Assembly: GCA_964019425.1 (NCBI GenBank)
Contig: OZ025795.1
Span: 1,302,001-1,366,000, forward strand
Reading direction: 5' to 3'
Origin: Flectonema sp. DT1601
Taxonomy: Eukaryota
DNA length: 64,000 nt
The notes beneath the pieces are model-generated. The model had not been told where the DNA came from, did no database searches, and worked only from the letters and a program-made list of their open reading frames with translations. This document shows, in pieces, positions 9,941 to 43,425 of the stretch (its first letter is position 1; the number at the start of each line of letters is the position of its first letter). The position numbers and the translations under genes are program-made.

Positions 9941-10466
9941 TCGAATCCTATCTTAAAATAAAACGACGGTTTTAGATGCAAATCAGATAGCCTGATTTTC
10001 ATTAAATCAATAGTTATGAACAAGTCAACGAGTCTCTATTTCAGACTTGCACTGAATTCATGATGCAGTACCTCTCTCTTCGTTTGCTTGTCCTTTATTC
10101 TTACCCAAAAAAGAAAAGTTATCAGCAAGGGTTGTGTTTTTTATTCTCGTTCTCTGTGTCTGTAAGTTGAAACCGAAATATAATTATTTAGTGAACAATA
10201 AGCTGTTTGTTGATAGTAATTAAATTCGTACTGCAGGTTATCATAAATTATGTTTGGTAAAAAGCGATTGTTGCAGACAACTATCGTGGAACACGATTGC
10301 AAGATATGTATTGTCTTTTCCAAAACCTTCAAAAAGAAGAAATCCCATTGCAAGGTTCTTCATTTCTTGGGGATCTTAAAATAGATCATTGTACAGTAGT
10401 ATTGTTATCTCTTTGTGAGAATCTAATAACACCTTCTTCTCCTTCAGGAAACTACTCAAAACAACA

Positions 10467-12072
10467 ATGCAGGTTTTTGTGACGTGTCCGGATTTGGGAT
10501 TCCCCGCAGTGTCAGTCGCGACTGGTGTTGATTCCCTTGTGAGCGAAGTGTTGACGGCGGCAGCTGGGGAGTGGGATGTGGATCCGGAGGAAGTTGAACT
10601 GTCGTTCGCTGGTGACACGCTTTGCGAAAGTGAGCGACTAGCAGATCGTGGAGTGGTTGGAGAGAGCGAGTTGGAGATGTGGAAGAAGCGGTTTCGTATA
10701 TTTAGTAAATGCTGGTTTGTTGATGATTCAAAACGGGAGAAGCTGCTTCGTTGGCTAAGTGAACACAATGAGGAATACTTATGCCTTGACACCACAACAT
10801 TCACAGAGGATGGTTGCCTCAGTATTAAGGGTGATTTGCTTCCTTCTGATGCCGAACGGATTTCTTTCCGCAATTCAAATCCCGACATCTCAGCCATCTC
10901 ACAAGTTGTCACCATTGGAGATTTTTTCTTGTGTCACTGTTCACAAATCACTTCTGTTGATTTTTCAGGTCTTAGTAGTGTCACCACTATTGGAAATGCT
11001 TTCTTGTGTCACTGTTCACAAATCACTTCTCTTGATTTTTCAGGTCTTAGTAGTGTCACCACTATTGAAGGTTTTTTCTTGTATTCCTGCTCACAAATCA
11101 CTTCTCTTGATCTTTCAGGTCTTAGTAGTGTCACCACTATTGGAAATAGTTTCTTGTCTCATTGTTCACAAATCACTTCTCTTGACCTTTTACGTCTTAG
11201 TAGTGTCACCACTATTGGAGATTATTTCTTGTCTTCCTGCTCACAAATCACTTCTCTTGATCTTTCAGGTCTTAGTAGTGTCACCACTATTGGAAATAGT
11301 TTCTTGTCTCATTGTTCACAAATCACTTCTCTTGACCTTTTACGTCTTAGTAGTGTCACCACTATTGGAGATTATTTCTTGTCTTCCTGCTCACAAATCA
11401 CTTCTCTTGATCTTTCAGGTCTTAGTAGTGTCACCACTATTGGAAATAGTTTCTTGTCTCATTGTTCACAAATCACTTCTCTTGACCTTTTACGTCTTAG
11501 TAGTGTCACCACTATTGGAGATTATTTCTTGTCTTCCTGCTCACAAATCACTTCTCTTGATCTTTCAAGTCTTGGTAGTGTCACCACTATTGGACATAGT
11601 TTCTTATATCACTGTTCACAAATCACTTCTGTTGACCTCTCAGATCTTAGTAGTGTCACCACTATTGGAGATTATTTCTTGTCTTCCTGCTCGCAAATCA
11701 CTTCTCTTGATCTTTCAGGTTCTAAGTAGTGTCACCACTATTGGATTTCGTTTCTTATATCACTGTTCACAAATCACTTCTCTTGATCTTTCAGATCTTA
11801 GTAGTGTCACCACTATTGGACATAGTTTCTTGTCTCATTGTTCGCAAATCACTTCTGTTGACCTCTCAGGTCTAAGTAGCGTCACCACTATAGGAGATTA
11901 TTTCTTGTCTAAATGTACACAAATCACTTCTCTTGTTCTTTCTGGTCTTAGTAGTGTGATTAAAATAGGCGATAGGTTCCTTGCTAATAGCAATGCACTT
12001 GAATCTGTTCAGCTGCCTGTAAATAATGGCGCTCTCTTTGAGAAGTCAGTGGAAGCAGCGATTAATCATTAA
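10467..12072 (+). pseudogene. UBL-LRR gene copy 1: ubiquitin-like domain + 14 BspA/TpLRR-type 23-aa repeats + C-cap; one +1 frameshift near 11720
   Basis: MQVFV...LSFAGDTL...LADRGV ubiquitin-fold pattern; repeat ITSLDLSGLSSVTTIGxxFLxxCSQ. GGTTCTA at 11718-11724 versus GGTCTA/GGTCTT in other units (true mutation or assembly error). Confidence 0.8.
10898..11960 (+). repeat. 69-bp coding tandem array with a 138-bp higher-order unit repeated three times
   Basis: Units alternate AAT AGT..TCT CAT and GAT TAT..TCT TCC from about 11130 to 11560. Confidence 0.95.
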
Positions 12073-12884: not shown

Positions 12885-13594
12885 ATGCAAGTTTTTGTGA
12901 CGTGTCCGGATTTGGGATTCCCCGCAGTGTCAGTCACGACTGGTGTTGATTCCCTTGTGAGCGAAGTGTTGACGGCGGCAGCTGGGGAGTGGGATGTGGA
13001 TCCGGAGGAAGTTGAACTGTCGTTCGCTGGTGACACGCTTTGCGAAAGTGAGCGACTAGCAGATCGTGGAGTGGTTGGAGAGAGCGAGTTGGAGATGTGG
13101 AAGAAGCGGTTTCGTATATTTAGTAAATGCTGGTTTGTTGATGATTCAAAACGGGAGAAGCTGCTTCGTTGGCTAAGTGAACACAATGAGGAATACTTAT
13201 GCCTTGACACCACAACATTCACAGAGGATGGTTGCCTCAGTATTAAGGATGATTTGCTTCCTTCTGATGCCGAATGGATTTCTTTCCGCAATTCAAATCC
13301 CGACATCTCAGCCATCTCACAAGCTGTCACTATTGGAAATCGTTTCTTGTATCTTTGTTCACAAATCACTTCTCTTGATCTTTCACGTCTTAGTAGTGTC
13401 ACCACTATCGGAGATGTTTTCTTGTGTGGCTGTTCACAAATCACTTCTCTTGATCTTTCAGGTCTTAGTAGTGTCGCCACTAGGAGATTATTTCTTGTCT
13501 GAGTGTACACAAATCACTTCTCTTATTCTTTCAGGTCTTAGTAGTGTCACCACTATTGGAGATGTTTTCTTGTGTGACTGTTCACAGATCGCTT
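12885..13594 (+). pseudogene. UBL-LRR gene copy 2: 2-nt deletion near 13481, interrupted by a retrotransposon in repeat 4
   Basis: Near-identical to copy 1 at a 2418-bp offset, including ~200 bp of upstream DNA. LRR sequence stops at ...TGTTCACAGATCGCTT (13594). Confidence 0.85.
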
Positions 13595-13662
13595 GGGATC
13601 ACGACACCTGCCTCCTCGCGGCGGTCCCGGACGACTTCGATAGGGGTCGACAAAACAGTGTC
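13595..13662 (+). ncRNA. HDV-like self-cleaving ribozyme at the element 5' end
   Basis: P1 GGGAUC/GGUCCC; P2 GACAC/GUGUC; P3 GCC/GGC; L3 UCCUCGC; P1.1 CC/GG; P4 CGACUUC/GGGGUCG; candidate catalytic C at 13651 followed by AAAA. Confidence 0.8.
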
Positions 13663-16620
13663 AAACACAAGAGATGCCAACAACATCAAAACCATCAAAA
13701 CCAGCTACAACATCCAGAGCATACAAACCCTGGATGCTTCTTGTCAAATAAAGAACGGAATAAACTAGCCCATGCCTTGAATGGCAATGGTGGACCAGGA
13801 AAGGACAGCAGAGACCGACGCCCGCGAGACGATACTCGCGACAGGGACGAAAACCGTCCAAACAAGGAGGAACGCCGCATAGCGAAGCTCGAGAAAGAGA
13901 AACTCGACTCGCTAGACGAGATAGAGGAAGAGAAGCAACGACTGGGGCAGCAGAGAATGGCCATGGAACAGCACCACCACCAGAAGGAAACCAACCTTCA
14001 AGGACAAGAAAAACAGTTGGAACAGCAACGCCAACACCAACAACAAGAACTGCAAAGTCAGTACCACCAACAACAGCAGCAACTGCAGAGCCATCATCAG
14101 CTGAAGGAAGCGGAAAACCTCCAGAAGGAGCAAAACCTACAGGCTCAACTCAAGGAGCGACACCAGCACCAACAGAAGGAATTGCAGAAGCAATACCGCC
14201 AACAACAACAGCAACTGGAAAGCCAACAGCAGAAGAAGGACGCCGAGTCTGAACAGCAAACACATCTGACTCGGTCACAACTACAGAAGGAGAAGGAATC
14301 CTTCCAGACAGAGAAGGAACGGCTCCACCTCCAGCTGGATCAGCAGTTGAAGAACGAGAAGGAGCACCTCCACCAACAACTCCAACAGAAGGAAGACGAG
14401 GTTCGTAAAGAAAAGTTAGCAGAGAGAATAGAACTCCAACAACTGCGAGATGAACTAACTCAACAAGAACAGAACATCCAACGACGTGAGGAAGAGGTGA
14501 ACCGAGGACAGCACCAACTACACCAACAACAACAACAACTAGAGCAGCAGCAACAGCAATCGCAACATCAGCAACTGGAACTACAACAACAACGGCAACA
14601 ACAGCAACAGCAACAACAGCATCAACAACTGGAACTACAACAACAACAACAACAGCACCAACAACAGCATCAACAACTGGAACTGGAACAACAACAACTA
14701 CAACAGCAACAGCAACTGCAACAACATCGACAACCGCAACAACAACCGCAACAGCAACCCGTACACTACATGCAACATCAACCGTATGCAACGTACGACA
14801 CCTACGCCCAGCAGCAGCAGTCTTCCCACTACGAAGGGCTACAACAGGAACTGAAGCGCGAAAGAGAGGAGAAGAGCGAACTACGCGAGATGCTCCGAAC
14901 TCTCCAACAACAACTGGACGGATTGAGAGAAGAACTCAAGGCCCAACATGCTGAGGCGAAGAGGCAGCAGGAAACGGCGGGACGAGAAGCGAGAGAGATG
15001 CAAGAACGTTTCTTGCTAGAACTGGAAGCGGAACGGGTCCAGATCAGAGGGCTCAACTCGCTGAGAGAAGAGGAAGAGGAACATCAGATGGACACCACCC
15101 CTGATCAGGAAGCAAATACGGAAGTGAAGCAAACGCCACCGGTGAAGCTGCCCCAAGACGGCATGAGGGAGCTGGACGCCTCACGCAAGAAGCTGATGAA
15201 AGAAATCAATGAAGGGCAGGTAGCCGGACGATCGGCCATCCAAGAGCAGATGGTCCGAGAGGCCGGGAGACTGGCGCAGACTCAGAAGAGCTGGGAGAAC
15301 GCAGCACGCAAGGAGCGATCCAGAGTGGATAACCTCTCGCTGGCACCGGAATACTGGCCAGAGGGAATGGCGATCACGAAGGAGCAGTACGACGCCGGTA
15401 CAAAGGGAGTACACCTCACCACCAGAGAGGAGGCAAGGAAGAGGATGTCGGGAACACCTCCGGGAGCCTGGGAAACGTTATCCCTGGTAACCCTGGAACC
15501 ACCATCAAGCACGGCCCAAAAAGTACAAGTGGTACTGAAGGAGACGACGAGCGACGGCGAGAAGAGAATTCTCAAGCAGCTCTGGATGACAACACTGGGA
15601 AGAGTGGTTGTACCATCCGGAACAGACGTCGTGCGGACGGAAAGCACGAGGGAGATGGTTGTCCGGGTGGACAAAAAATGATCCGGAGAGAAGAGATTGT
15701 CGGAAGTGAAGCGCTCCCCGTTCAGAGCAACGGAGGAATTGAAGAAGATGCCGGGGTACGTCGATACGTACAACCCGCGGATCGGAGACCAGAGCGTCAC
15801 GGTGATGCTCAGGGTGAAGGTAGCCGAAGTGAAGAACTTCCTCCGAGAATCGGGGAAGGACGGCGTCTTCACCAAGGAAAAGGATCCGAGAGAGGAACGA
15901 GCAGTGAAGGCGGCGGTCATTTGGCTACCGAAGGACGAGACGCTCGGAATCGCTCGGGACAAGGCTGTAGAAGTCGATGGGGGGCTGGGACTCGTGGTAA
16001 ACGAACACGGACTCGGGCTTCGAGTGACCAGCTGGCAGGAAACGGCGGCGAGGGAGAAACTGCACCTGCCGGCTAAGCTACCGGAAACAAAGATCACGGG
16101 TATCCCGATCGGCACAACCACCGACGAAGCGATCAAGTGGCTGATCACGAAGGAAGGCTGGGAAGTGAGGAAGACGAAGGAAGGCGTACGGAACGGCATG
16201 CGATGGATGGTCGTCCGCGGTCCGGTGAGAACGCAGGAAACCATCACGGTGGATGGCGTCCTGTGCATGGTGGAGGCTGGGAAACAGAAGGAGGAAGTCG
16301 ACCCGAAACGGAAGGAGACCAAACGCCCGAATGCGACACCGACGAAACCAGAGAAAAGGCGTGACCCGACGGAGGGAACGGGAGGAAAGTGGTACACTCG
16401 ATTGGAGTTCATCGAGTTTCATGGGAAGAAGAAGGGACAACGCCTATGGTTAGAAGCCAGCAACCCAACACCAACTACGACGGCACCTACGAAGGCAGCG
16501 ACCGCAACGACGACAACGGAAAAGGAACCCAAGTCGACAAAAAAGAAGGAGAACAGCTCAGTGGACGAGAGATTGGACCGACTGGAACGTCTACTGATGG
16601 CGTTCATGGAACGGAATTGA
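13597..16620 (+). CDS. retrotransposon ORF1 (Gln-rich coiled coil + unknown domains); internal in-frame TGA at 15679-15681; start codon uncertain
   Basis: ORFs 13177..15681 and 15697..16620 share one frame. Poly-Q/E heptads at 13950-15080; C-terminal coiled coil VDERLDRLERLL. Confidence 0.75.
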
Positions 16621-19600
16621 CCGGCGGAGGACGGAAGGAACTGGGCGGAGACACGGAGACGTCTCCTGCTACAAGCTGGCGACGTTGAGAGGAACCCCGG
16701 ACCGAGACCACGAATCGATGGGCTCACCGTGGGAACAATCAATGTCACCACACTAGAAGGAAAAATAGATGCCATCACAGATCTGAACCTAGATCTGATA
16801 GCTCTACAGGAAACTTCTCTGACGGGCCCACAGCAACGCCAGATGAAAAAACAGCTCGGTGAGAGAGGATGGGAAGCGACGTTCGGGTTAGAGTGCAAAT
16901 TACTAACCGATGGGCAAAAGACGTGGACGGCGGCGGGAGGCGTGGCCATCTTGACGCGCACTGGTACACCGGTGAGAAGGATAAAACACGATCGGCTCGA
17001 CAACACAGGACGATTCGTACACGCGGGAGTGTCGTACGGAAATGGCAAGGTACTGCACGTTTTCTCGTTCTACGGAGACGTACGTTCGGCGGTCTACACG
17101 GAAGAGTTGATTGCGGAGATGCTCGTGGAAGCAGCAGCTCTGGGTGATGTTCCCGTATTGATAGCGGGGGACTTCAACGTCGAAACAACGGAATCGCCGG
17201 CGCTTCTGTCGGCTTTCGCACACGGACTCTGGATAGATGCCGCCGTCTCGATGGGAAACATGACACCGACAAGCGAAGCGGGAAAAGGACTTCGTAGAAT
17301 CGATGCTATTCTGATGAACCGCGGGGCGGCGACAGCAATCTCGAATGACACAACGATCCATGTGCATAAGAGTGAGCTGATCCCGACACACAAGCCGGTC
17401 ATCATTAGAAAGCTCAACATCTCACGTTACAACGAGAAGGCTCCTAGGCTGATAGTACCGAAACAGTTGGATACCTCCGAGACAACGGCCCCGAGTGAGG
17501 GGAAGGCCGAAAGGCAACTCCACTGGACGCGAGCTGTAGCGACGGAAGATCCTGACAAGATGCTGGAGGCGCTTGGAGAGATCATCGAAAGATACCTTCT
17601 GACGGGAAATCTGGAGATAAGTAACCCAGCCAAGTACAAGGGACGCGGGAAGAAGCGTGAGCCTGTGATGTGGACGAACGCGGCGAAACAAGACGGGAGA
17701 GGAGCGACGTGCAGGGAAACGCGAAGAAGACTGCAGAAGATACGTGTTCTGGAGGAAGTGATGAAAATCACAAAGCAACGCGATGGTCCGACGGTGCCGT
17801 CCCACGAAGTAATGAAACTCTGGAAAAAATTACGAAAACTCGATCCGACGACGGGATCCGAAATACCACAGACGGAGGAGCTTCGGATACTACTACAACA
17901 AGCGAGACAGGAGCAAGCGATAGAAAGCAAGAAGCTCCGAACTGAACGCATCCGCATGTGGAAACGGAATGTTGTCGACAATTGGAATGACGACCGCACG
18001 AAAGTTTTCCAGTGGATCAGGAACGTCGAGCAATCGAAGACTGTTCTGATGGAAAAGGCAGATGGAAGCTGGACGGCCAACTGCTCCGAGATGGATGAGG
18101 CCATGCACGCGGCATGGGACCCCATACTCAAAAAGTACTTATCAGACCCGGAACCAGACTGGATGAAGTTCGAAGAACGGTACAGCATCCTAACTACATC
18201 GAGGAACACCCGATGCGATGCGAAGATATCACCGGGGAGGACGTTGCAAAAGCCCTCAGAAGGACTAGCTCGCGCAAAGCAGCTGGGGTAGACGGCTTCA
18301 GGATATCGGAGCTCAAGTCGCTACCGGAGGACATGATTCAGATGATAGCGGAATTCTACAACATAGTGGAGAGAACACACTGGCCGGAAGCACTTCTCAC
18401 GGCACTGGTGTCGGCCATACCCAAAGGGGCAGGGACGAAACTACTGGAGCAGAGACCCATTACGGTGACATCCGCACTTTACAGACTATGGGGCTGTATA
18501 CGTATGGAAAAGGATGTAATGGAGTGGCAAGAGAAGTGGGCTCACGACGGGCAGTACGGCTACCGGAAGGGGAGATCTACGCTCGACCTCAGCTGGAAGA
18601 TAGCACTAGACGTGGAACACGCAACTCTCTACGGAGAAGAGATTGCTGGAGTGACCACGGACTTCAGGAAGTGTTTCGACCTGATCCCGCACGACATCCT
18701 CCTGAAATTGGTGAAGGAATTGGGCCTCGGTGATAAGATCCTGAGAACTGTGACGGATGTCTACCGGCGACTCAGAAGGAGATTCAAGTTCCCGAGCGGC
18801 GTCGGAGAAGAATTTGCCACCACCAACGGAATACTGCAAGGATGTCCGCTCAGCGTGGTGCTCTTCAATGCGCTGAGCTCGATACTCAGCAAAGCAATCG
18901 AGAGGGAAGCCGATGTGACGCCCGGATCGTATGCGGACGACCTGACGTTGTTTGGATCACGAACGAAGCTACAAGAAGGCGTAGAAGTCGTTGCGGAGTT
19001 CTGCACCCTGACCGGACAAGAACTCGCACCTCAGAAGTGCAAGTGGTTCTCGAACAGAGACCAGGGCCAGACCAACATCACAATGGGGGACACAACACTG
19101 GACTTCGATGACAGTGTCGATATCGTGGGATGCCACCTCAGTATGAAAGGAACCACCAAGCAGATGGGGAGGATCACGGAAGAAGTGCTCGATAGAGCGA
19201 GGCGAATCCGGTTACTTCCGCTCAGATATCAAGCGAAGGAACAGATAGCTGCAGCTAGTGTCATGCCCAAGGCGCTCTTCGGAACGGCACTGTACGATCC
19301 CGATGCGACGCGACTCGGACTGCTGAGAAGAGCAATGGCAACGGGGATTTTCCGGAAACTTGGAGGGAAAAGAACTAAGATGTCGCACACCATGGGCCTA
19401 ACGCTACTCTGCAAGGGACATTGTGTGGATCCCGCGACGTACATTAGGTACAATAGACTCCTTGCACTCACCAGAATGCTACCGAAGCTAACTGAGAGGA
19501 TACGCAGGGTATGGGAACACCTGCAAGAGCACACTGAAGCGACGAGAGGACCAGTCGGCCTCGCCCTGAGTACTCTGAAGGAACTTGGATGGGAATGGTC

Positions 19601-19919
19601 AACTTTCTCGGTCTTCGAAGGTCCGGGAGGGACGACCGAACACGGAAGGCTGGATGCGGGGCGCTGGCGGCACGATGTCAGAGAGGCGTGCAGGCGTTTC
19701 ACCTGGAACAAAACAATTGCGGAAACGAGACGGGTAAACCTGAGAGGTATTGAAGCGGGCATCGACCGGAAAGAGACCCTGAAGGTCCTGAAGGAAGGAA
19801 AGGGCGACCCCTACCTGCGCGGAGTAGTGAAGCACTGCCTCCTGGACAACGTGTACACTGGCTCGATGAAGGCGGGAAACAAGAACTGCGCGCACTGCGA
19901 GGAGGTTGACGACGTAGAG
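16621..19919 (+). CDS. retrotransposon ORF2: 2A-like peptide, AP endonuclease, reverse transcriptase, partial zinc knuckle; one frameshift near 18190
   Basis: Frame is open from 16621: PAEDGRNWAETRRRLLLQAGDVERNPGP, then APE. RT continues in the 18114..19940 frame. Confidence 0.88.
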
Positions 19920-19939
19920 AGTACATCTGTTGACTTGTG

Positions 19940-20200
19940 AAACTTTGAATGAGGAAACTAAAGAACCTGACAATGTAGTGACACATACTCAACAGGAGCT
20001 GATTGAATTATTAAATTAATAAAAAGGATCGTTTAGAATATGTAAAGACTGGAGTTAGGAAATATTTATTATAGACTCAGTAGATGAGGTAATACGAAAG
20101 GACAAAATCCAACTACTCTGAATTCTTGAAAAATGAGGAACCCAAAACCTTTGACTTCACTGCTATGTATAGCAACCCAAAGCAGAGAAGCGTTGGTGGA
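19940..20200 (+). pseudogene. degenerate Penelope-like reverse transcriptase fragment
   Basis: With frameshifts it reads KTGVRKY-IIDSVDEVI...PKTFDFTAMYSN, resembling the Penelope-type RT motif TFDFxxLYTxI. Confidence 0.5.
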
Positions 20201-40578: not shown

Positions 40579-42343
40579 TTATCATCCTAGGCGGTCATCC
40601 AACCTGTGTCAGTTAATTTCGCCCTCTAAATTTGGAGGGCGGTTCTAACTCCGACAATTTTAAAATGTTGCTTTTATTATTATTATATCGATTCACCTTA
40701 ATATTTTTAACAATTAATTGCTCAGTAGGCATGAGATGAGGCAGAAATTCTTTCTTTGAATGAAAAACTCACAAAATAATACTACGAACCTGAAGATCGT
40801 ATTTTCTCTTTGACATTGATTACATTTCGTAGTCGGTTATCGTCCGTCTCTTACACTGCCTGCCTCGTCAATAACTTCTAGTTAAAGTACGTCTCTCCTC
40901 GCTGTGAGAGTCTCTCTTAAATACTGTTTCCTGAATTCGAATGTTTTTTCTTTTTTTTGATAAAATTATTTATCTTTTCATAACTGAGACAAGTCTTCAC
41001 TCAAAAAGGGTAATTAATATTTGTGTGAATTATTATTTACTCTTCCTTTGATGTATTGTTTGTATTCTTTCTTGTTTTTTTTTTTTTTTTTCTTCTTTGA
41101 ATTATTTGGTTTTAAATTTGTAGTTTTCAGCAGTCTGGTCCCCACTGTCCGTCGCAGATCTTTCCATTTTTTTTTTTTTTTTTAAAATCCCTCTTAAGTG
41201 TGCGTATACTTGTTTCTGTTTTAAAACTAACTGATTCATGTTAATATTAGTCTGTGAGAGTCTCACGGTTGCTGGTAGCGATGTAACTGTTACCCTGTTG
41301 AGCTTTTCCTGGTTTAGTTTACAACGATGGCAACTTCAATATAGAATGAAGTCTCTTAGAACTTACTGATGAAGGCCTAAAAAGGGACAAATAGTATAAG
41401 ATTAAGTCTCCTGAAAACTACATATTCTATTACCCTTTTGATGTTAGGAAACTGCAGAAATGAATACTTTTCTTTTGCTAATTTTTACTTTTTATTCTCA
41501 CTTTTCTATACTAAATTTAATGATAACTAACTGATAACCGTTGATACTAACTAATCATCTTTATGAGTAGGACAGTCACTTACTTTCTTTGTTGTCCTAC
41601 GAGTTTTTGTATTTCATTAACCTATTTAATGTTACACAAAATAAATAATCTTTTCCGTCTGTTCTAAACACCTACCTGCCTCCTCAGTTCTGGTAACTTT
41701 TGGTGGTTAATTCTCCAAGGTACTTTAGTTATAATTTAAAAGGTATATAACTCTTTAAAAGACTGCTACAGTAACATTAGCAATCTGGCGCTCAACTGTG
41801 TTCATATGACTTGCTGTGATATTGTTTTATTTGCAGCTATTTACAATGCTGCCGCTGACAGTCAAGATTGTCTGAAGTGGTGTTGTTTTTTTTGAGCCTG
41901 ATTACGTATCTTATAATCTCTCCCCTACAAGATCGCTTCGAGTCTCTTTCTTCTTCTTCTTGTTTTCTTTTTTGGTAATTTATATAAATAAATAATAAAT
42001 AACTTTCACTTTGGTTTTGTTATTTTGTCAGTTCTTTGCCTTTGTCATATTGTACAAAGATTTCTATTTATAGTTTTAAAAAGTAACACAAGTAGAGAAT
42101 CACATAAATCAACTTCCTTTCATGTACTCTCACAGTATCCATACCTATGATGATAGAATAGAGTTAAAGAGATAATCTAAGTTCACTTTCAAAGCTTCAA
42201 TACAATTAATTCTATAACCCCCTCCACAGAGTAGAATCAGTATCGATGTCTCTGTTAGCCTTGGCAAGCAGCAGTTAGCATTTCCACTTTTTTGGAACCA
42301 CTTCAACACCCGTCTTGATTTTCAAGAATTACTCAAAGCAACA

Positions 42344-43425
42344 ATGCAGGTTTTTGTGACGTGTCCGGATTTGGGATTCCCCGCAGTGTCAGTCACGACT
42401 GGTGTTGATTCCCTTGTGAGCGAAGTGTTGACGGCGGCGGCTGGGGAGTGGGATGTGGATCCGGAAGAAGTTGAACTGTCGTTCGCTGGTGACACGCTTT
42501 GCGAAAGTGAGCGACTAGCAGATCGTGGAGTGGTTGGAGAGAGCGAGTTGGAGATGTGGAAGAAGCGGTTTCGTATATTCAGTAAATGCTGGTTTGTTGA
42601 TGATTCAAAACGGGAGAAGCTGCTTCGCTGGCTAAGAGAACACAATGAGGAATACTTATGCCTTGACACCACAACATTCACAGAGGATGGTTGCCTCAGT
42701 ATTAAGGGTGATTTGCTTCCTTCTGATGCCGAACGGATTTCTTTCCGCAATTCAAATCCCGACATCTCAGCCATCTCACAAATTGTCACTATTGGAAATT
42801 GTTTCTTGTATCTTTGTTCACAAATCACTTCTCTTGATCTTTCAGGTCTAAGTAGTGTCACCACCATTGGAGATTATTTCTTGTCTATCTGTTCACAAAT
42901 CACTTAGTGCCTCGTCATCTCACCGTGCTAGCAAGCCTGAATGACAGCACTCAAAATGGTACATATATCTGTTCACAAATCACTTCTCTTGACCTCTCAC
43001 GTCTTAGTAGTGTCACCACCATTGGACATCGTTTCTTATATCACTGTTCACAAATCACTTCTCTTGATCTTTCAGGTCTTAGTAGTGTCACCACTATTGG
43101 AGATGATTTCTTGTCTCATTGTTCACAAATCACTTCTCTTGACCTTTCAGATCTTAGTAGTGTCACCACCATTGGAGATTATTTCTTGTCTATCTGTTCA
43201 CAAATCACTTCTCTTGACCTCTCAGATCTTAGTAGTGTCACCACTATTGGAGATTATTTCTTGTCTTCCTGTTCACAAATCACTTCTCTTGATCTTTCAA
43301 GTCTTAATAGTGTGATTAATTTTGGAGATAACTTCCTTGTTGATTGCAATGCACTTGAATCTGTTCAGCTGCCTGTAAATAATGGCGCTCTCTTTGAGGA
43401 GTCAGTGGAAGCAGCTATTAATTAA
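42344..43425 (+). pseudogene. UBL-LRR gene copy 3 (6 repeats + C-cap), disrupted by a 60-bp insert plus 20-bp duplication
   Basis: Same UBL and linker as copies 1 and 2. Removing 80 bp restores a single ORF. Confidence 0.85.
42906..42965. mobile_element. 60-bp hairpin-forming insertion with a 20-bp target-site duplication
   Basis: TATCTGTTCACAAATCACTT at 42886-42905 and 42966-42985; internal stems AGTGC/GCACT and GTCAT/ATGAC. Confidence 0.85.

Follow-up and report, generated by a model that had tools for sequence, protein, structure and literature searches.

A 64,000-nucleotide stretch of Flectonema sp. DT1601 (contig OZ025795.1, positions 1,302,001 to 1,366,000; called the window here) contains a copy of a retrotransposon that lacks long terminal repeats (a non-LTR retrotransposon), with an unusual junction between its two open reading frames (ORFs). 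ORF1 closes with a UGA codon, and the same frame continues through a 27-codon linker with a canonical 2A peptide into ORF2, which encodes an APE endonuclease and a reverse transcriptase (RT). No AUG is able to start an intact endonuclease. The junction stop is the inherited end of ORF1 and not a product of decay. Judged by comparison of the copies, the layout is conserved in the family and very likely functional, and the AUG-less ORF2 is very likely translated. As route into ORF2 we favour leaky readthrough of the UGA combined with ribosomal skipping (StopGo) at the 2A peptide, to which we give an even chance. The features of the junction are as follows.

16618..16621, + strand: UGA-C closing ORF1, in the same frame as ORF2 and unchanged in a sister contig (X1)
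16621..16704, + strand: 27-codon linker with the canonical 2A sequence PAEDGRNWAETRRRLLLQAGDVERNPG, then the Pro codon 16702-16704
16729..16731, + strand: GTG (Val37) in ACC-GTG-G context, the ORF2 start of the database gene caller and a rival non-AUG start
16843..16845, + strand: first in-frame ORF2 ATG, codon 75 past the stop, 3′ of N41 (16741) and E64 (16810)

Structure of the junction

ORF1 ends with the codons ATG (16606), GAA, CGG, AAT and TGA (16618-16620), which are followed by CCG GCG. The frame behind the stop comprises 27 open codons ending in LLLQAGDVERNPG, the 3′ codons being CTC CTG CTA CAA GCT GGC GAC GTT GAG AGG AAC CCC GGA (last base 16701); then come CCG for Pro at 16702 and the APE endonuclease. 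A preliminary description of this DNA had claimed this very order of UGA-C, 27 in-frame codons, 2A, Pro and endonuclease, and proved exact on codon-by-codon reading. A single reading frame extends from the host junction at about 13594 to 18291 and contains TGA at 15679 and at 16618. The in-frame ATGs near the junction are 16597 and 16606, both 5′ of the stop, and 16843 on its 3′ side. Residues N41, Q63, E64 and T65 of the endonuclease, invariant in all seven aligned relatives, precede the ATG at 16843, which is too late for the start of ORF2, as had been argued; the further claim of an ORF2 starting without AUG is upheld insofar as no AUG could start an intact endonuclease. Near-cognate start codons early in the linker are limited to AGG (codon 6, 16636) and CTG (codon 16, in poor context and too late).

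The linker carries the class A 2A core GD(V/I)ExNPGP in the form GDVERNPGP, and 12 of its last 14 residues match P2A. Within the 64-kb window, read in six frames, DVERNPGP is the sole match to D[VI]ExNPGP and the sole NPGP. Skipping at NPG/P is predicted from this motif. The presence of 2A peptides in L1Tc and other APE retrotransposons, also stated in the preliminary description, is established in the literature (PMC3708506; papers are cited throughout for the parts of their text available to us). A 2A peptide requires about 15-19 residues upstream of PGP (PMC12338488), and translation therefore has to begin no more than about nine codons past the stop, or else pass through the stop. Conserved residues cover this distance, with 17 of the last 22 shared with P0003, an element protein of Flectonema neradi. 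Overall 19 of the 28 linker residues (68%) are identical to P0003 in an ungapped alignment, above the identity over the whole of ORF2 (55.5%), which indicates that the linker is retained as protein sequence.

The junction stop in other copies

The element and the lesions of the window copy are listed below.

13595..19921, + strand: copy of the APE-RT non-LTR retrotransposon, apparently complete at its 5′ end and lacking its 3′ part of about 490 codons
13594..16620, + strand: ORF1 frame, with a leader open from the host junction and the first ATG at 13957
15679..15681, + strand: second in-frame TGA, a private lesion serving as internal control; TGG in the X1 contig and Trp in 6/6 same-family proteins
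16768..17337, + strand: Pfam-matched stretch of the APE endonuclease (PF03372 Exo_endo_phos, residues 50-239 past the stop, E 4.5e-7)
18187..18191, + strand: 5-nt insertion frameshifting ORF2, absent from the X1 contig
18447..19067, + strand: Pfam-matched stretch of the RT (PF00078 RVT_1, E 6.5e-24), after the frameshift

The order of APE (PF03372) upstream of a non-LTR RT (PF00078) in ORF2 identifies an APE-type non-LTR retrotransposon, and copies are dispersed, since the ORF2 cluster has 22 members, and the 15 members listed lie on at least 10 distinct contigs. The GC content is 0.53-0.55 in the element and about 0.36 in its flanks. Similarity to the leucine-rich repeats (LRRs) of a host gene ends at 13594, which sets the 5′ boundary. 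At 19921 the X1 contig departs from the window and runs on in family sequence, and the family ORF2 protein P0002 extends to 1542 amino acids, beyond the break of the window copy. With its private TGA at 15679, the insertion at 18187, past which (from about 18190) the RT is in a different frame from APE, and its lost 3′ end, the window copy is dead.

Eight same-family ORF1 proteins were found; six of them, encoded on six distinct contigs, reach the C-terminus and end with LLMAFMERN, and the other two are shorter fragments. All six complete proteins have Trp at the position of the 15679 stop. The X1 contig (depth 2, covering 14762-19921) has TGG there and lacks the insertion at 18187, and it retains TGA-CCG and the 2A sequence. 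Because this contig and the six proteins show Trp at 15679 and yet stop at the junction, the TGA at 15679 is private and that at 16618 is the inherited end of ORF1. A single ORF interrupted by decay of one copy was accordingly rejected. The preliminary description had held that a sense codon in place of the UGA in other copies would speak against its proposal; the copies have the stop instead. At the aligned position ORF1 stops as well in all 22 sister-family proteins (about 62% identity) and in all three from F. neradi. The nearest relatives with a name, for ORF1 and ORF2 alike, belong to this diplonemid, so that the host is probably a diplonemid too, and probably a marine protist. Host genes use the standard code: of 16 long ORFs, 8 end with TAA, 5 with TAG and 3 with TGA, and recoding of UGA as a sense codon was rejected on this ground. 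No ORF1-ORF2 fusion protein was present among the matches listed of 911-2600 amino acids (with 15 of the 22 cluster members listed, and representatives not necessarily the longest). Runs X2 and X3 yielded nothing but LRR or low-complexity pieces.

The two DNA copies differ mostly silently in ORF2. Of 25 substitutions between the window and X1, 18 are synonymous, where a fraction of about 0.27-0.28 is expected (binomial p 3e-5 at 0.31); the counts cover the substitutions listed, with adjacent changes within one codon scored singly. In ORF1 18 of the 29 listed substitutions are silent. An unbroken ORF2 of 1542 amino acids is found in at least four family members (15 of 22 listed). Eight of these 15 span the APE start, one of them the window's own, and in all eight ORF2 is called from the GTG at 16729. 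As both copies carry the UGA and show this synonymous excess, ORF2 is most simply explained as being under selection behind the stop, and because the second copy keeps TGA-CCG and the 2A sequence, translation of ORF2 is very likely. Functional copies would thus have a single in-frame stop with selected coding sequence behind it, the codon itself being seen in two DNA copies. Across 16300-19921 the window and X1 differ at 29 positions, with none in 16528-17006; this gap was rejected as a sign of extra conservation, as an equally long one arises in 51% of simulations.

Proposed leaky readthrough and alternative routes into ORF2

According to the favoured reading, most ribosomes would halt at the UGA and release the ORF1 protein (ORF1p). 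At a low, probably unstimulated rate a near-cognate tRNA would decode the UGA, and these ribosomes would add 27 codons and then skip at NPG/P. StopGo would release ORF1p with a 28-residue tail, and the ORF2 protein (ORF2p) would be made separately, starting at Pro. Because StopGo would free ORF2p after rare readthrough, the stop would set the ORF1p:ORF2p ratio and the 2A peptide would replace both start codon and protease. Readthrough accounts for the shared frame of ORF1 and ORF2 (chance expectation 1 in 3), for TGA-C, for the absence of usable starts and for the retention of the 2A peptide, which makes direct sense if ORF1p remains attached upstream. TGA-C, which the preliminary description had called the leakiest stop context, is found at none of 17 crude host ORF ends. 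The element would need little ORF2p, and for L1 the unprogrammed readthrough of premature stops has been held to supply sufficient ORF2p to mobilise Alu at a low level (PMC4176336). The probabilities attached to readthrough and to its rivals are our judgements and not computed values.

Several points weigh against readthrough. A 3′ stimulator (CUAG-type context, stem-loop or pseudoknot) was not found: bases +4 to +6 are CCG and not a CUAG context, and five folds around the stop gave no structure above shuffles (z −0.06 to 0.80; pseudoknots were not searched). A small hairpin (16644-16670) appeared in one long fold only. The best long-range pairing arm was no better than those at 79 of 122 background positions. 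In human readthrough reporters UGAC serves as a negative control (PMC8136774), and on readthrough rules in diplonemids nothing was found in the literature searched. The stop codon's identity is known from two DNA copies, the window and one contig of depth 2 that is possibly from the same sample as the assembly, and protein records reveal the presence of a stop, not which codon it is. Moreover the copies, which show 7-25 differences over 1542 amino acids, are young, so that shared features reflect one recent source. A canonical 2A motif is no guarantee of skipping, as such peptides are often weak or lower the output: for one 2A-peptide library 18.6% of cells were inside the active gate (bioRxiv 10.64898/2026.09.24.754024), and 59% of the tested 2A-like peptides of ORF2p reduced protein abundance (PMC13405545). 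As no stimulator was found, the junction is classed as working like leaky readthrough and not as a member of the programmed readthrough systems.

The most serious rival, which we regard as less probable than readthrough, is AUG-independent termination-reinitiation as proposed for L1, with a restart at a non-AUG codon within a few codons of the stop (AGG at 16636 or any other). A short 2A peptide would then be made, StopGo would give a uniform Pro start, and no ORF1-linker product would arise. A precedent for reinitiation at L1 ORF2 was reportedly described by Alisch in 2006. For ORF2 of mammalian L1, initiation without an AUG is the preferred model (PMC5009743, PMC5972666), which is a further point against readthrough and makes reinitiation a serious rival at our junction. 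It is in keeping with the lack of a readthrough structure near the stop and with L1Tc and other APE elements, in which a 2A peptide lies near the ORF2 start with little upstream (PMC3708506); the 2A peptide would also tidy heterogeneous start points. Reinitiation predicts neither the shared frame nor TGA-C, however, near-cognate codons are scarce among the first nine, an overlap of stop and start with an AUG as in SART1 is lacking, and reinitiation after a long ORF has been judged improbable (PMC3894237).

Improbable in our view is a start of ORF2 at the GUG at 16729, reached by reinitiation or internal entry, with the 2A peptide as relic of a lost protease arrangement. The codon has a strong Kozak-like context (ACC-GUG-G) and lies 5′ of N41. 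The F. neradi protein P0004 has a relic KNPG at this place, so that a 2A peptide can be lost in this lineage. The context is forced by Thr-Val-Gly, though, and GTG makes up 24 of 62 Val codons; residues of the first APE strand would, judging by the alignment, be lost with a start here, and the 2A sequence is perfect, its conservation exceeding that of ORF2 as a whole.

Less probable still is an unexpressed ORF2 in a family moved in trans by another long interspersed nuclear element (LINE), with the junction as a fossil: the window copy is dead, similar long contigs carry an ORF2 family that is 43-47% identical (P0005), and three sister ORF1 families without ORF2 found suggest that non-autonomous relatives may exist, but the synonymous excess in ORF2 and the intact 1542-amino-acid frames speak against it. 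Equally remote is removal of the stop at the RNA level (small cis-intron, trans-splicing or editing) or a sense UGA: diplonemids do trans-splice and have unusual introns (PMC10161547), but the junction is purine-rich with a longest pyrimidine run of 3-6 nt, trans-splicing would still require an AUG, copying back after removal in cis would presumably have erased the stop that the copies retain, and UGA, used as a stop by the host, counts at 15679 among the lesions, along with the frameshift and the truncation.

Relatives of ORF2 and origin of the junction

The single long ORF of F. neradi P0003 places a domain that matches Josephin weakly (E 0.012), with an RGG site, ahead of the 2A peptide. 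A comparable Josephin-like domain occurs in P0004 together with two RGG sites, and with the relic KNPG in place of 2A; P0004 belongs to the same Trinity gene as the ORF1 protein P0054. P0007 carries an OTU domain. The ORF2 N-terminus is thus labile across P0003, P0004, P0005, P0007 and P0085, the variants being Josephin-like domain with RGG and 2A, Josephin-like domain with RGG, no leader domain, OTU domain, and first Met inside APE. The last variant, P0085 of F. neradi, may represent another family without an AUG or come from a truncated transcript; with no firm place in the tree, it was left out of the comparison. Three distant relatives (P0006, P0008, P0082) have RVGEAxxPGP, a non-canonical 2A-like motif, upstream of APE.

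The preliminary description had proposed that no protease is needed. This fits the window family, which has no protease domain; its close relatives, on the other hand, carry a Josephin-like domain at the same position, and for this reason the window layout is probably a derived one in which that domain has been lost. The ancestral ORF2 would have resembled the F. neradi elements in its order of Met, Josephin-like domain, RGG, 2A, APE and RT, and a deletion removing start and protease would have left the old ORF1 stop directly before the 2A peptide. Loss of such a Met-protease block is probably the simplest history of the window family.

At its other end, P0002 has Cys/His-rich repeats (C-x-x-H, C-x-x-C, CC-x-x-x-HH) without Pfam match in the C-terminal 200 amino acids and a conserved REPQDKGLT-like terminus that it shares with F. 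neradi elements. At 19921-19940, short of the Cys/His-rich region, the window copy gives way to AT-rich DNA that is not the remainder of the LRR gene; either DNA was deleted once the element had inserted, or the assembly was joined here.

ORF1, the 5′ end and the host gene

Three features were located at the 5′ end of the element.

12885..13594, + strand: host BspA-type LRR gene, with the element inserted inside a repeat unit
13595..13662, + strand: candidate HDV (hepatitis delta virus)-like ribozyme, helices in nested double-pseudoknot order, found by eye
13759..13788, + strand: NKLAHALNGN, similar to NKxMHxxNGN, upstream of the first ATG of ORF1 (13957)

ORF1 matches no Pfam family. Its predicted layout is a Gln-rich coiled coil, alpha/beta domains and a short C-terminal helix. 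In a low-confidence model of the sister copy P0048 (mean predicted local distance difference test score 63) the alpha/beta domains come after the coiled coil, and their strands and helices, as modelled, are ordered in a way that resembles RNA recognition motifs. Within ORF1 (15740-15860), far upstream of the junction, two 80-nt windows fold better than shuffles (z about −3.2; 40 shuffles each, 56 windows). No ORF2 was found to go with three sister ORF1 families (P0050-P0053, P0061-P0078; about 62% identity), which are possibly ORF1-only non-autonomous elements. Some of their proteins open with poly-Lys, as if inserted behind A-runs.

The same LRR register, in frame with ORF1, is present in four family copies (window, P0049, P0055, P0060) and in F. 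neradi P0054/P0080, and an X1 contig has a different LRR flank at the same insertion point. This points to an apparent target-site specificity that would produce LRR-ORF1 fusion frames. Three BspA-LRR paralogues with a ubiquitin-like N-terminus lie in the window (10419-12072, 12885-13594, 42327-43425); the one at 10419 matches PF13306, and those at 10419 and 12885 are frameshifted.

The helices of the candidate ribozyme are 13595-13600/13623-13628, 13603-07/13658-62 and 13632-38/13643-49, with an extra helix (13610-12/13620-22) seen by eye around TCCTCGC. The stretch 13595-13662 has no Rfam match and a minimum free energy z of −0.19, and Rfam gave a single chance match across 13400-20100. L1Tc and R2 have HDV-like ribozymes at their 5′ ends (PMC6765202, PMC4035085). 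In sister families the candidate stretch is read in a different frame, giving MPPRGGLGRLR, and P0072 has it twice. In the NKLAHALNGN sequence, HxxNGN is kept in two sister families (P0050, P0051) and in F. neradi and has no match in P0052. Toti-like viruses (infectious myonecrosis virus and Omono River virus, IMNV/OmRV) cleave after NKxMHxxNGN, one putative site being NHVMHALNGN (PMC7968656; PMC9961563 alongside); no report of the NKxxHxxNGN motif in retrotransposons was found in the literature searched.

Comparison with known systems

A 2A peptide before APE, as in our element, is present in L1Tc/Ingi and in the Rex1, L2, CR1 and Crack elements that Odon et al. (2013) treat (PMC3708506, PMC3894237). 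Most of these have no ORF1 (exceptions are CR1-26_BF, CR1-53_BF and CR1-1_LG), whereas the window element has a long one, whose in-frame stop lies 27 codons ahead of the skip site with no AUG between. Ingi/L1Tc elements have a single ORF (PMC3708506), while the ORF1 frame here has about 1000 codons and is conserved in sister families. None of the full-length proteins P0002-P0005 matched a family of RNase H, a feature of L1Tc (PMC6765202), at E up to 1. Given the presence of ORF1 and the lack of an RNase H match, the element was not filed in the Ingi/L1Tc clade.

In elements of the order deubiquitinase-2A-APE-RT (Josephin in Haematococcus, OTU in Symbiodinium; PMC13405545) the 2A peptide parts an upstream domain from APE-RT as it does here, but the window family has no protease domain. 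In Cordylochernes ORF1p-2A-ORF2p forms a single frame (PMC13405545), in contrast to the stop between ORF1 and 2A in the window. Mammalian L1 shares the bicistronic RNA, the long ORF1, the low level of ORF2 and the proposed AUG independence (PMC5009743, PMC5972666); L1 has a 63-nt spacer and an AUG, and SART1 an overlapping UAAUG stop-start, whereas the window junction has no AUG, no spacer and a 2A peptide. An in-frame stop between structural and enzyme genes is also found in gag-pol of Moloney murine leukaemia virus (PMC5009743), which uses UAG and a pseudoknot, while no stimulatory structure was found here. Cardioviruses likewise combine two close recoding events, but with StopGo first and then a frameshift (PMC5009743).

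While 2A before APE is already known, a stop immediately before 2A without AUG appears new within the literature searched, where no such junction was found, although the supplements of Odon et al. (2013) may hold similar ones. None appeared either in literature pairing non-LTR elements with readthrough or in the available text of PMC12846837, and no diplonemid non-LTR element with such a junction was found in the literature searched; the available part of the D. papillatum genome paper gives LINE ORFs without such detail. JGI metagenomes contained no relative by protein, and all eight loci retrieved with a 5′-end pattern were unrelated. A PDB sequence search gave no match at E up to 10, and the ESM Atlas returned generic APE clusters only, with ORF1 matches below 0.8.

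Implications

How ORF2 is translated in LINEs with two ORFs is a debated question (PMC3894237, PMC3708506), for which the window family is a natural minimal case. With no AUG, no spacer and a 2A peptide that demands entry near the stop, readthrough and reinitiation predict opposites. If readthrough holds, non-LTR elements would use a gammaretrovirus-like strategy in which StopGo replaces the protease that is part of the murine leukaemia virus gag-pol strategy; if reinitiation holds, AUG-free initiation of the L1 type would extend to Euglenozoa. The relatives form an evolutionary series of protease with 2A, protease only, and stop with 2A. Tentatively, and with less confidence than in readthrough itself, we envisage a diplonemid LINE lineage without an AUG of its own, in which translation would enter in frame from the host LRR gene (or a 5′ HDV-like ribozyme would act instead), cleavage at NKxxHxxNGN would free ORF1p, UGA readthrough would meter ORF2 and StopGo would follow. 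Such a lineage would combine four virus-like processing signals in series and would be the first readthrough-controlled non-LTR retrotransposon within the literature searched.

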